Of a stretch of DNA of 64,000 bases, positions 43,777-46,885 are shown piece by piece. The translations under genes were made by a program, and so were the position numbers. The stretch comes from an uncultured Chloroflexia bacterium (GTDB lineage Bacteria; Chloroflexota; Limnocylindria; QHBO01): positions 13,250 to 77,249 of the forward strand of contig CAWEPF010000007.1 of the NCBI GenBank assembly GCA_963810925.1, in the 5' to 3' direction. Numbering within the stretch: the first letter of the stretch is position 1; every line of letters starts with the position of its first letter. The notes beneath the pieces were generated by a model that had not been told where the DNA came from, did not search any database, and was given only the letters and a program-made list of their open reading frames with translations.

Positions 43777-43845
43777 CGCATTGCGAAACCCGCATCTGAC
43801 CAACACCGGGCCTTGACCGGGCCGGTGCTAGACTCCCGCACCCAC

Positions 43846-45282
43846 ATGGACGACAACACACCCGCGGATCTGCCCCCGGCAGATCTGCCCGACCCCATCC
43901 CGGATCCCGCCGACACGCCGCCCGGCACGGCGCCGCTGCCGACCGAAGCGCCCGTGCGCTCCACGGGCGGTCGGTCGCTGCGCTACGCGGCCCTGTTCGG
44001 CCTGGCCGCCCTGCTCGGTACGTTCCTGTTCATCGGTGGCTACCTGGCCGCCGGCGGCAACGGGAGCTCGTGCGCGGCCCCGAGCGAGGCCTTCGCGGCC
44101 TTCTGCCAGGCGTACGACAAGCTGCACGCGGAGTACGTCGACCCTCTCGATGACGACCTGCTGGTCGATGGCGCGCTGCACGGCATGTTCCAGTACGGCG
44201 TCCCGGATCCGCACAGCGGGTACATGAGCCCACAGGACTACGAGAACTCGCTCGGCGACCTGCAGGGCACGTTCAGCGGGATCGGGGCCGAGCTGGCGGT
44301 GAGCAACACCGAGAACCCCGACGACCTGGCGGCGTGCCAGACGCTCTCCGACACGTGCGTCCTGGAGGTCATCGCCCCCATCAACGGATCGCCCGCCGAG
44401 GCGGCCGGCCTCCAGTCGGGGGACATCGTCGTGGCCATCGACGGCGAGAGCGTGAACGGCGGCACCATCGAGGACGCCATCACCAAGGTCCGCGGCCCCG
44501 AAGGGACCGATGTGACGCTGACCATCAGCCGCGACGGCGAGGTCTCGGACCTGACCATCACCCGGGCCCAGATCACGGTGGTCGAGGTCGAAAGCCGGAT
44601 GATCGACGACCACGTGGGCTACATCGCTCTCCACGGGTTCAGCTCCAATGCGAGCACCCAGTTCCACGACGAGCTGAAGACGCTCCTCGACCAGGGCGCC
44701 GACCAGATCGTGTTCGACCTGCGCGACAACCCGGGCGGCTACATCAGCGCCGCCCAGGAGGTGGCGTCGGAGTTCATCGCCGACGGGCTGCTGTTCACGC
44801 AGGAGTCCTCGGGCGGCGAGGTCAAGCGCTGGGAGGCGACCGGCGACGGGATCGCCACCGACCCGCACATCTCGCTGGTGGTCCTCATCAATGGCGGCTC
44901 GGCCTCGGCGTCCGAGATCGTGGGAGCCGCGCTGGACGAGACCGATCGGGCCGAGATCATCGGTGAGCCCAGCTACGGCAAGAACACGGTCCAGGTCTGG
45001 GACCAGCTGGTGAACGGGGGTGGCGTCCGGATCACGATCTCGCGGTGGTTCACCCCGGACCACAACAGCGTGGCCCCCGACGGGATCCAGCCCGACATCG
45101 TGGTCGCCATTCCGGAGGGCACGCCGCCGACCGAAGACCCCGTTCTGGACCGCGCCCTCCAGTACCTCGGCACGGTGGAGCAGCCGGCCGCGGCGGCTCC
45201 GGCCCGGGCAGTGGGCGCCCCTGCTGGCCTCGTGCCGATGAGCGTGGTGGGTCGCGTCAGTCCCGGATGGGTTGTGGGCTGA
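43846..45282 (+). CDS. S41 family carboxyl-terminal processing protease
   Basis: TM, PDZ (FSGIG, SPAEAAGL), DLRDNPGG, SASASE, YGK. Confidence 0.93.
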   Translation: MDDNTPADLPPADLPDPIPDPADTPPGTAPLPTEAPVRSTGGRSLRYAALFGLAALLGTFLFIGGYLAAGGNGSSCAAPSEAFAAFCQAYDKLHAEYVDPLDDDLLVDGALHGMFQYGVPDPHSGYMSPQDYENSLGDLQGTFSGIGAELAVSNTENPDDLAACQTLSDTCVLEVIAPINGSPAEAAGLQSGDIVVAIDGESVNGGTIEDAITKVRGPEGTDVTLTISRDGEVSDLTITRAQITVVEVESRMIDDHVGYIALHGFSSNASTQFHDELKTLLDQGADQIVFDLRDNPGGYISAAQEVASEFIADGLLFTQESSGGEVKRWEATGDGIATDPHISLVVLINGGSASASEIVGAALDETDRAEIIGEPSYGKNTVQVWDQLVNGGGVRITISRWFTPDHNSVAPDGIQPDIVVAIPEGTPPTEDPVLDRALQYLGTVEQPAAAAPARAVGAPAGLVPMSVVGRVSPGWVVG

Positions 45283-45292
45283 TTGCGGCGCG

Positions 45293-45301
45293 TGCTAGCA
45301 T
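45293..45301 (+). promoter_or_regulatory. Extended -10 promoter upstream of the micro-ORF and smpB
   Basis: TGcTAGCAT. Confidence 0.55.
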
Positions 45302-45330
45302 CCGCGGCCACGAAAGGAGGTGGTGTGCAG

Positions 45331-45372
45331 ATGGACAGTTCCAGGCGCGCCACCACCGGGGCGGTGCATTAG
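45331..45372 (+). CDS. Putative 13-aa leader/micro-peptide MDSSRRATTGAVH
   Basis: Preceded by AAAGGAGGTGGT; ATG..TAG; followed by a strong hairpin. Confidence 0.5.
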   Translation: MDSSRRATTGAVH

Positions 45373-45397
45373 ACACAGCCATCGCGTGGTAGCGCAG

Positions 45398-45431
45398 GAT
45401 GGAGCCGGCCGGCAGGCCGGCTCTTTCCATC
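45398..45431 (+). terminator. GC-rich hairpin, terminator or attenuator-like
   Basis: GAGCCGGCC-GGCA-GGCCGGCTC then TTT; outer GATGGA/TCCATC pairing also possible. Confidence 0.6.
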
Positions 45432-45446
45432 TCACCCCCAAGGGAC

Positions 45447-45905
45447 ATGCCTGACCAGACCGTTGCGCTGAACCGCCGCGCCCGCCACGAGTTCGCCGTC
45501 GAGGAGACGCTCGAGGCCGGCCTCGTCCTGACCGGGACCGAGATCAAGAGCATCCGGGCCGGTCGCGCCAACCTGGCCGAGGCCTACGCCCGGATCGAGC
45601 GAGGCGAGGCCTGGCTCATCGGTGCGCACATCGCTCCGTACGAGCAGGCCAGCCGCTTCAACCACGAGCCCACCCGGACCCGCAAGCTGCTCCTCCATCG
45701 CGACCAGATCGCGGAGCTCGTGGGCAAGACCCAGAGCAAGGGATACACCCTGGTTCCCTTGAAGCTGTACATCCGCGGGGGAATCGCCAAGGTGGAGCTG
45801 GGCATCGGCCGCGGGCGCAAGGCGCACGACAAGCGCCGGGTCATTGCGGAGCGCGATGCACGACGCGAGCTGGAGCGCGAGTCGAAGGTCCGGGTCCGGC
45901 TCTAG
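45447..45905 (+). CDS. smpB: SsrA-binding protein
   Basis: NRRARH, EAGLVLTGTEIKS, RKLLLH, HDKR. Confidence 0.98.
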   Translation: MPDQTVALNRRARHEFAVEETLEAGLVLTGTEIKSIRAGRANLAEAYARIERGEAWLIGAHIAPYEQASRFNHEPTRTRKLLLHRDQIAELVGKTQSKGYTLVPLKLYIRGGIAKVELGIGRGRKAHDKRRVIAERDARRELERESKVRVRL

Positions 45906-45980
45906 CCCAACTCGCCCAGCCGGACCGGCGGAGGGCCCGTGGTATCCTCGAAACACCGGGCGGAGCCGTTCGGTGTTCGT

Positions 45981-46337
45981 GGGGATGTCAGGTTTCGACA
46001 GGGCCAACGAACCGGGAATCGCGAGCCGAGGTCGCCCGCAGGCCTCGTTAAACCGCGGGCAAACGTAACTGGCAACCGTCAGTTCGCCCTCGCTGCCTAG
46101 GCAGTGAGCACTGACACCGTCCCCTCTCCCCGGGCGGTGAAGGTGTCATCAGGGGAGATGCGGCACCGCCGACTCCGGTGAGCGGTGACAAAGAGCCGAA
46201 AGGCAGCCGGATAGGACTTGGAGCACCCCGCCGGTTGGGGGCCCGAGACCCGAAACCCAAATAGGCCGGAAACGCTCGTAGTGAGACCCGGGAACTCGGT
46301 TCTGGACGGGGAGTTCGATTCTCCCCCATCTCCACCA
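45981..46337 (+). ncRNA. ssrA: Transfer-messenger RNA; tag (A)GNRQFALAA at 46071-46100
   Basis: 5' GGGGATG..GGTTTCGAC, 3' GGGAGTTCGATTCTCCCCCATCTCCACCA; tag ORF after TAACT; extended -10 TGgTATCCT upstream. Confidence 0.97.
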
Positions 46338-46441
46338 TTTCTCCTGCACATCGGTCTTGCTTGACCGATGCCGGGCGCGGTAGGGTCCGCGTGCCGAGGA
46401 ACTTCTCGCGCCCAATCCGCCGAGTTGGAGAAGCAACGCCC

Positions 46442-46885
46442 ATGAATTTCTCTGCCCTGAGCGGTACTGACCGCATGGCCGCCCTGTCTGCCGTGGTGGT
46501 CCTGATCACGTCGATCATCAGCCTGGTCTGGGCGTGGGGGGCATTGATGCTCCTCCCCCTGGTGGCCGGCCTCTTCGTCCTGTTCGTCGTCTTCCAGCCG
46601 AGCGTCGCCCCGACAGTGAAGCTGCCGATGACCCACGGCTTCCTCCTCCTGGTTGGAGGGGCGGCAGCCGCGCTGTTCTGGGCCGTCGTGGCACTCGAAT
46701 GGCTGGGTTACATCTTCGAGCACCTGCTCTCGTTGGACGTCCTGCAATTCTTCGTGGGGTTCATCGCGGCCCTGGCCATGGCGTTCTTCGGCTGGCAGGC
46801 GTTCCAGGCGGACAAGGGAACGGCAGGCGCCGCGCCCCCGTCGGCCCCGTCGGCCCCGGTTCCCCCGGCTCCCCCCGCCGCCTGA
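46442..46885 (+). CDS. Hypothetical 4-TM membrane protein with Pro/Ala tail
   Basis: GGAG SD, four hydrophobic segments. Confidence 0.75.
   Translation: MNFSALSGTDRMAALSAVVVLITSIISLVWAWGALMLLPLVAGLFVLFVVFQPSVAPTVKLPMTHGFLLLVGGAAAALFWAVVALEWLGYIFEHLLSLDVLQFFVGFIAALAMAFFGWQAFQADKGTAGAAPPSAPSAPVPPAPPAA

Follow-up and report, generated by a model that had tools for sequence, protein, structure and literature searches.

In leader-peptide attenuators of the trpL type, and in those that sense antibiotics (ermC, ABC-F), a promoter is followed by a short leader open reading frame (ORF), alternative helices, a terminator-like hairpin and a gene. In dual-function small RNAs (sRNAs) and in type I toxin mRNAs with a sequestered Shine-Dalgarno (SD) sequence, a small transcript contains an ORF, and an internal anti-SD masks the SD of that ORF. 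Here we examine an element that combines parts of these arrangements and lies immediately upstream of smpB in a 64,000-nt stretch of DNA (the window) from an uncultured Chloroflexia bacterium of the Limnocylindria (GenBank assembly GCA_963810925.1, contig CAWEPF010000007.1, positions 13,250 to 77,249 of the forward strand). Two further systems bear on it. One is the STAB-SD of the cry3A mRNA of Bacillus thuringiensis, which, like the element, carries close to its 5′ end an SD-like sequence complementary to the 3′ end of 16S rRNA; as far as the accessible text of the papers goes, the STAB-SD starts no translation and blocks RNase J1 by way of a bound 30S subunit (PMC4113751), and a strong SD protects the hbs mRNA (PMC5737220). 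The other is Ms_IGR-5 (Rfam family RF02471). In the accessible parts of the sources, IGR-5 is a validated, uncharacterised sRNA of Mycolicibacterium smegmatis that is encoded between MSMEG_5794 and MSMEG_5795 and whose start has been corrected to an A (bioRxiv 10.1101/2021.12.14.472595). It was detected again under the name ncMSMEG15794c (PMC10454040), Ms_IGR-5 was found by Rfam in Streptomyces (PMC8079986, PMC8780764), and in M. abscessus and M. smegmatis the ribosomal reads on its homologues are reported as significant (PMC4974804).

The spacer between smpB and the preceding gene, which appears to encode an S41-type peptidase, is 164 nt long. A prediction made from the letters of the window (the original prediction) had described this spacer as carrying, in order, an extended −10 box, a very strong SD, a 13-codon ORF and a GC hairpin ahead of smpB, and direct reading of the sequence found every one of these features where it had been placed. 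Our analysis indicates that together they constitute a real, self-contained micro-ORF RNA that is predicted to engage ribosomes and is probably neither a dedicated smpB switch nor a peptide gene. Its parts, all on the plus strand, are as follows.

45272–45277, + strand: −35-like hexamer TTGTGG, read directly, within the 3′ end of the S41 peptidase ORF
45293–45301, + strand: extended −10 box TGcTAGCAT, read directly
45312–45327, + strand: 16-mer GAAAGGAGGTGGTGTG, of which 45312–45324 pair with 13 nt of the 16S rRNA 3′ tail
45313–45324, + strand: SD AAAGGAGGTGGT, read directly
45316–45357, + strand: P1, a predicted helix between the SD and spacer (45316–45328) and an anti-SD inside the ORF (45345–45357), enclosing the start codon
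45331–45372, + strand: micro-ORF of 13 codons (MDSSRRATTGAVH, then stop), with ATG at 45331 and TAG at 45370–45372
45347–45395, + strand: P2, a predicted helix between the anti-SD strand (45347–45367) and a GUGGU/GCGC strand (45372–45395), with the stop codon at its apex; it excludes P1
45397–45428, + strand: GC-rich terminator-like hairpin with a weak U tail, UCUUUCC, from the fold and from covariation
45447–45905, + strand: smpB, 18 nt 3′ of the hairpin, with ATG at 45447, from the ORF and a protein search

An in-frame GTG at 45325 would lengthen the micro-ORF by two codons.

The element has its own conserved promoter. The sequence TANNNT ends 9–11 nt 5′ of GAAAGG in 159 of 162 distinct elements, as against 15 of 750 displaced control positions, and a TTG hexamer stands 16–19 nt 5′ of the −10 box in 150 of the 162, as against none of 750 controls. 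At the window locus the −10 box ends 10 nt before the SD-like sequence, and the transcript should start at about 45308, 3–4 nt before the SD. The SD itself is exceptional. It forms 13 consecutive pairs with the 16S tail of its own genome (11 Watson-Crick, one G-U and one U-A), in agreement with the strength originally claimed for it, and the 2.0-Mb genome contains the 12-mer AAAGGAGGTGRT at exactly two places, once in the element and once as the reverse complement of the 16S 3′ end. Within the window the exact 9-mer AAGGAGGTG occurs once, and sites with at most one mismatch to it number 19, compared with 9.3 expected.

A protein search found smpB in 39 of 41 relatives. Every one of the 39 genomes of the same class (Ca. 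Limnocylindria, Chloroflexota) in which an smpB locus was found has the element upstream of the gene. These 39 loci comprise the 30 fetched from relatives and nine from the more distant families f2, f4 and f5; L008 and L021 come from unpublished genomes, L012 runs into a contig end and shows the 3′ half only, and L025, L027 and L028 were confirmed by the RNA model described below. In the smpB-anchored loci, which were not chosen by motif, GAAAGGAGGTGRTGTG is invariant while the flanks and even smpB diverge. Conservation in relatives had been set beforehand as the test of the original prediction, and the SD, the micro-ORF, the SD-hiding helix and the hairpin all proved to be conserved. When the genome collection was scanned with an 18-nt pattern, at least 118 loci were recovered, most of them from Chloroflexota or Limnocylindria metagenome-assembled genomes (MAGs). 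Contigs labelled Angelobacter, Alphaproteobacteria, Zixiibacteriota, Steroidobacteraceae and Saccharimonadales (L040, L053, L055, L090 and L105) carry typical Limnocylindria element–smpB sequence, and these off-phylum labels are probably the result of bin contamination or mislabelling.

The unit is the 5′ leader of smpB by position in the window genome. Across 109 loci the gap from the hairpin to the smpB ATG has a median of 55 nt (range 13–427), and in 13 of them it is at most 30 nt, leaving no room for a separate promoter, so that in those genomes too the unit is the smpB leader by position. A cis role on smpB is therefore possible. As a separate observation, TGATA(C/G)GGT lies 9 nt before the smpB ATG in seven of 17 same-genus loci (L003–L009, one from an unpublished genome), a segment that is missing in the window and in L002; its sequence suggests that in those seven loci smpB has its own promoter and a nearly leaderless mRNA.

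In the fold of 45283–45460, GGUGGUGUGC (45319–45328) pairs with GCGCGCCACC (45345–45354), which is the pairing that had been proposed to hide the SD and start codon from within the ORF. The minimum free energy (MFE) of this fold is −84.3 kcal/mol (z = −2.61), and three of 200 shuffles fold as well. Folds of single sequences fall into two mutually exclusive states, P1 or P2. The SD:anti-SD pairing (P1) is part of the MFE structure in 68 of 87 representatives, over which an SD-free fold costs a median of 10.3 kcal/mol, and when the first 24 nt are blocked the anti-SD pairs with a downstream GGGUGG or GUGGU strand (P2), placing the stop codon at the apex. RNAalifold applied to plain MAFFT alignments, in which the middle of the element was misaligned, gave P1 and the hairpin and missed P2. 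We set P2 by hand from the single-sequence folds and then tested it on an alignment of 87 sequences fitted to R1, our own RNA model of the element (search threshold E 1e-6). On this alignment, which leans towards the structure to which it was fitted, both P2 and the hairpin show covariation, with changes on both sides in 19 of 25 pairs, eight of 12 in P2 (92.7% of cells paired) and 11 of 13 in the hairpin (99% of cells paired), and the strands of P2 show many compensatory variants among those listed. Paired cells amount to 96.0% as against 82.2% in shuffles, none of 500 shuffles reaches the observed values, and slid controls give 34–53%.

The hairpin at 45397–45428 consists in the fold of a 10-bp GC hairpin on a lower GGA/UCC stem. 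It is terminator-like in its GC-rich, covarying stem, but its tail, UCUUUCC, is weak in U, and it went uncalled by a simple terminator scan. The original prediction had also envisaged that two CCATC words compete for GATGG. The three words are indeed present at the places given for them, but the competing folds did not hold up, in that the lower stem is GGA/UCC and, by eye in the alignment, the hairpin base varies among relatives (GGAUGAG, GGAGGAG, AACAAGAG) without the upstream CCAUC following it.

The ORF is retained with few departures. A census of 174 distinct motif sites, with unpublished loci excluded, included eight cut by the locus end and 11 that represent other contexts, having no start codon 8–11 nt after GGAGG. 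An ORF of 13–31 codons that starts at this distance is kept in 154 of the 155 sites that remain, the exception (L050) being an ordinary gene in a Desulfobacterales MAG. Start codons are GTG in 120 cases, ATG in 34 and TTG in one; stop codons are TAG in 74, TAA in 56 and TGA in 24. The length of the ORF varies by whole codons, and the stop holds its structural position.

The 16-mer occurs in 107 of 401 sampled Chloroflexota genomes, almost always in one copy, and a reversed control pattern matched once. By family these include 26 of 28 genomes of f25, 11 of 11 of f29, five of five of f17 (one unpublished), five of six of f6, 23 of 23 of f3 and 14 of 16 of f1. Loci outside the Limnocylindria have the same layout, with a strong promoter (TTGACA/TAnAAT), a start codon at +9 to +11, an ORF of 21–31 codons, a closing helix and a canonical U-tract terminator with runs of 5–7 U. 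At 14 of these loci the next gene is birA (biotin protein ligase) in 11 cases, greA-lysS in one, an abhydrolase gene in one and a gene without a family match in one, and smpB was not found within the 1.5 kb fetched. By eye, birA starts about 15–30 nt after the terminator; the window genome has its own biotin protein ligase genes on another contig. We also observed the 16-mer GAAAGGAGGTGRTGTG without a start codon at L167–L171, L205, L107 and L145, about 75–190 nt before the ribosome-binding site of the next gene, which by eye resembles a lipoprotein or solute-binding protein gene (at L205 an ORF with an SBP_bac_8 match lies 131 nt after the 16-mer). These start-less loci look like a 5′ stabiliser of the STAB-SD type in Chloroflexota.

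Comparison with Rfam showed that the element is undescribed there at threshold, and that Ms_IGR-5 is its nearest named relative. An Rfam search of the spacer in E-value mode returned only a noise-level minus-strand match to PtaRNA1 (E 8.6, 15.1 bits), and RF02471 had no match at E up to 10 in the interval 44800–46500. RF02471 did match one of 12 Chloroflexota loci (L165, in genome G032) at 27.2 bits, against a gathering score of 45; in the whole genome of G032 the match (E 1.3e-4) falls exactly on the element, the sole case among 61 genomes of the class. As a positive control, a pattern derived from the Rfam consensus retrieved Actinomycetota loci, and all ten that were tested were RF02471 at 57–185 bits. 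In the accessible text of the literature we found no description of an smpB leader, of the element, or of an ORF in Ms_IGR-5; the original prediction had not recognised the element as a described one.

The layout that the element shares with RF02471 comprises a 5′ extended SD, an SD-hiding hairpin, a micro-ORF and a terminal hairpin. As predicted for the element, only a few nt precede the extended SD (ACACAGGAAGGAGGUGGUC) in the Ms_IGR-5 transcript, the 5′ end of which reads ACACA and then GGAAGGAGGUGGUC. The start codon of Ms_IGR-5 lies 9–11 nt after GGAGG (8–11 nt in the element) and is mostly UUG, compared with GUG or AUG here; both end in a GC hairpin, with the tail CUCCAU in Ms_IGR-5. Of 106 Ms_IGR-5 sites, 99 have a micro-ORF of 12 codons (LIDLWTCEVAAS, then stop, is one example), with an SD-like GAGGUGG about 9 nt before the stop and, before the terminator, a CCACC strand for which both SD-like strands are possible partners. 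The two RNAs arrange their anti-SD and SD-like strands in different orders, and the genes downstream of Ms_IGR-5 vary in Actinomycetota. This is a resemblance of architecture and no proof of common descent, which we nevertheless regard as moderately probable.

The element is best grouped with SD-masked micro-ORF sRNAs and leaders, and it differs from each of the other described systems in definable ways. It has the part order of leader-peptide attenuators and, like them, a largely free peptide sequence, but it has no helix that competes with the terminator and no runs of regulatory codons, its alternative helices act on the leader's own SD, and its downstream gene changes between classes. Like dual-function sRNAs and type I toxin mRNAs it is a small transcript with the SD of its ORF masked by an internal anti-SD; unlike them it encodes a polar, unconserved peptide of 12–31 residues, has no antisense partner that we could see, and is present in one copy per genome in a housekeeping neighbourhood. 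Unlike the STAB-SD, which starts no translation, it keeps a start codon, which opens an ORF at +8 to +11 in 154 of 155 sites, and along with it an anti-SD and a stop codon at a helix apex. Other candidates were rejected: 6S RNA or a further housekeeping RNA (the element has no Rfam match and is not rod-like), a biotin-sensing RNA, as birA might suggest (the form in the window is without the closing-helix domain of the longer forms, and the gene is a ligase), a type I toxin (polar peptide) and the precursor of a ribosomally synthesised and post-translationally modified peptide (no modifying genes nearby).

How such an RNA might work can be sketched from its computed properties, namely the promoter, the SD complementarity, the retention of the ORF, the P1/P2 alternatives, the covariation of P2 and the hairpin, and the distribution. 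Because the transcript would begin 3–4 nt before a 13-nt complement of the 16S tail, a free 30S subunit could seize the 5′ end as it emerges. The anti-SD would be made about 35 nt later and, if no 30S subunit were bound, P1 would close and hide the SD and start codon; if a ribosome were bound, the 13-codon ORF would be translated, the anti-SD would pair with the downstream GGUGG strand (P2) and the SD would stay open. In this way the RNA would record ribosome availability as a translated, open form or an untranslated, closed one. The unit would end at the GC hairpin, and smpB, 18 nt later, would most likely be transcribed by read-through, with the unit as its 5′ leader. The two forms may act through the stability of the transcript or through use of the unmasked, 16S-tail-like CACCACC strand. 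The start site, translation, kinetic competition, read-through and the action of the two forms are the steps of this scheme that we infer. We put at about even the chances that the element is, in this sense, a self-contained small transcription unit producing a ribosome-gated small RNA, in which the RNA and its engagement with the ribosome are the working part. A broader version is rather unlikely: that one ancient RNA family spanning Actinomycetota (Ms_IGR-5) and Chloroflexota reads out the free 30S pool by setting SD capture at the 5′ end against an internal anti-SD, translation unmasking a 16S-tail-like CACCACC(UC) strand whose targets are the SDs of other mRNAs or the downstream transcript. 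Were it correct, smpB would here be tied to ribosome availability.

Several observations weigh against the ribosome-gated reading. The MFE structure is without P1 in 19 of the 87 representatives, and the 5′ strand of P1 is invariant, which leaves P1 without covariation support; the case for this predicted helix is made by thermodynamics and one-sided changes only. RF02471 exceeds its cut-off of 45 bits in none of the 61 class genomes, model R1 does not detect Ms_IGR-5 loci, and the argument for homology to the birA-linked and actinobacterial elements is one of common layout and motifs. Synteny of the two flanking genes extends over the class (an S41 peptidase homologue upstream and smpB downstream in 108 of 112 loci), which, with the 13 of 109 short gaps, makes a cis role on smpB possible. 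Contigs of four metatranscriptome sets (X3, X9, X4 and X7), which cannot show absence and so count neither way, cover only the tmRNA at 45981–46337 and short pieces of smpB, and none covers 45283–45446. Among 24 sequencing runs listed, none contained half or more of the sampled words. Soil and freshwater-sediment RNA contigs are 95–99% alike to the window tmRNA, with a depth of up to about 400 in X9 (contig depth being a poor measure of level), and the presence of such tmRNA-like contigs in those RNA runs indicates that close relatives are transcriptionally active there.

We considered four other explanations. That the 13-residue peptide is the product that matters, and the element thus a micro-protein gene, would fit the strong SD, the fixed start spacing and the retained ORF, as well as a loose C-terminal pattern that recurs as T-T-E-A-V-R/H here, T-E-V-I-A-x in family f2 and T-C-E-V-A-A-R in Actinomycetota. 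The recurring residues, however, fall on the helix strands ACC ACC and GAG GYG, the length spans 12 to 31 codons, and the three codon positions are equally variable, with variable columns at 7/7/6 of 12, 13/13/12 of 14, 10/12/10 of 15 and 22/22/23 of 23. Non-synonymous codon differences are in 6- to 12-fold excess (synonymous to non-synonymous 188:1203, 494:3702, 334:1902 and 278:3299), and purifying selection on the peptide was seen neither in the Chloroflexota set nor in Actinomycetota (1709:6992). A micro-protein gene is thus very unlikely. Since the frame is kept in 154 of 155 sites and the peptide is not conserved, it is the RNA and the act of translation that appear to be selected; of the two fallbacks offered originally, a 30S-binding small RNA fits these data better and a standalone peptide, for want of codon periodicity, fits them worse. 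That the spacer holds nothing special, merely a terminator of the upstream peptidase gene beside a chance SD and ORF, is scarcely credible. GC-rich DNA should contain short open frames by chance and the simple terminator scan missed the hairpin, but a chance assembly would have to account for class-wide conservation far above that of the flanks, for the element's own promoter, for the covariation, and for a single copy per genome in the 107 of 401 genomes, set against the one hit of the reversed control.

The two remaining explanations concern smpB more directly. In a dedicated cis attenuator, as originally proposed, translation of the micro-ORF would set the passage of RNA polymerase through the hairpin and so tune smpB, and possibly ssrA, to translational stress. 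The layout suits this, with a promoter, a short leader ORF, a terminator-like hairpin and a gene in the expected order, only 18 nt to the smpB ATG in the window and at most 30 nt in 13 of 109 loci, a constant position upstream of smpB in 39 of 39 class genomes, and a similarly short distance to birA in other families (by eye). In addition smpB in the window has no TANNNT and, as an SD, only AAGGGA 1 nt before its ATG, so that the claim that it has no good SD or −10 box of its own stands. An antiterminator that excludes the terminator was not found, however; the competition is between P1 and P2 alone. The free and the 5′-blocked folds (among the folds listed) both leave the hairpin intact, and in 11 of 12 sequences its GC core survived wherever a ribosome was simulated, in a rough test whose hairpin picker took in flanking pairs and mis-picked the twelfth (L195). 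The distance from the stop codon, 24 nt to the hairpin and about 60 nt to the release point, is too great for steric interference; relatives do not keep the CCATC competition; and seven of 17 same-genus loci have the −10-like box 9 nt before the smpB ATG. The downstream gene is not constant either, being smpB in 39 of 39 Limnocylindria but birA in 11 of 14 loci and greA-lysS in one of 14 elsewhere, and variable in Actinomycetota. Since synteny of both neighbours extends over the class, adjacency by itself says little for an smpB attenuator. An attenuator dedicated to ribosome rescue gained no support from these comparisons, the hairpin core being removed by no alternative fold and birA or greA following elsewhere, and we consider a dedicated attenuator unlikely. 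A 5′ stabiliser of the STAB-SD type, in which a 30S subunit or a ribosome on the mini-ORF at the extreme 5′ end would shield the transcript and the read-through smpB mRNA from 5′-to-3′ decay by RNase J, is likewise doubtful. It would fit the position of GAAAGGAGG 3–4 nt from the predicted 5′ end, the occurrence of RNase J (TIGR00649) over cut-off in every one of the 30 relatives with a completeness of 90% or more, and the 16-mers without a start codon before other genes elsewhere in Chloroflexota, of which one locus was tested and has a solute-binding-protein gene 131 nt after the 16-mer. A stabiliser would have no need, though, of the anti-SD, P2 or the conserved stop, and the hairpin stands between the module and smpB; RNase J was not over cut-off in the window genome (G000), which is 78.5% complete and in which the gene is probably unassembled.

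The neighbours that give the element its context in the window are the following.

43813–45282, + strand: the upstream neighbour, which we take to be an S41-type peptidase gene, from the ORF list and its translation; a homologue lies upstream in 108 of 112 loci
45981–46337, + strand: transfer-messenger RNA (tmRNA, ssrA), from ARAGORN and Rfam RF00023 (134.3 bits)

The tmRNA tag is GNRQFALAA. By eye, TGGTATCCT at 45940–45948 is an extended −10-like box about 33 nt 5′ of the tmRNA, and may be the ssrA promoter. A 44-codon frame at 45320–45454 begins inside the SD, ends in ATGCCTGA and overlaps the smpB start; it is not conserved, stopping after two codons (VQ, then stop) in most relatives. Family f1 keeps an SD-less smpB start context, (G)ACCGATG, in place of which the window has AAGGGACATG (45440–45449).

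The observation of this element is robust and phylum-wide, and its specific link to ribosome rescue is weak. A maximal SD, an ORF that is kept in frame and free in sequence, and a three-strand switch between SD and anti-SD point to a device that senses or uses the binding of ribosomes. Its likely counterpart in Actinomycetota has, as far as the accessible text of the sources goes, been seen on Northern blots and in ribosome profiling and never explained. Should the two groups prove unrelated, the layout must have arisen twice, and that would be informative too. If they are related, the micro-ORF and its switch would offer a testable mechanism for an orphan Rfam family, and would also explain why smpB here has no start signals of its own.

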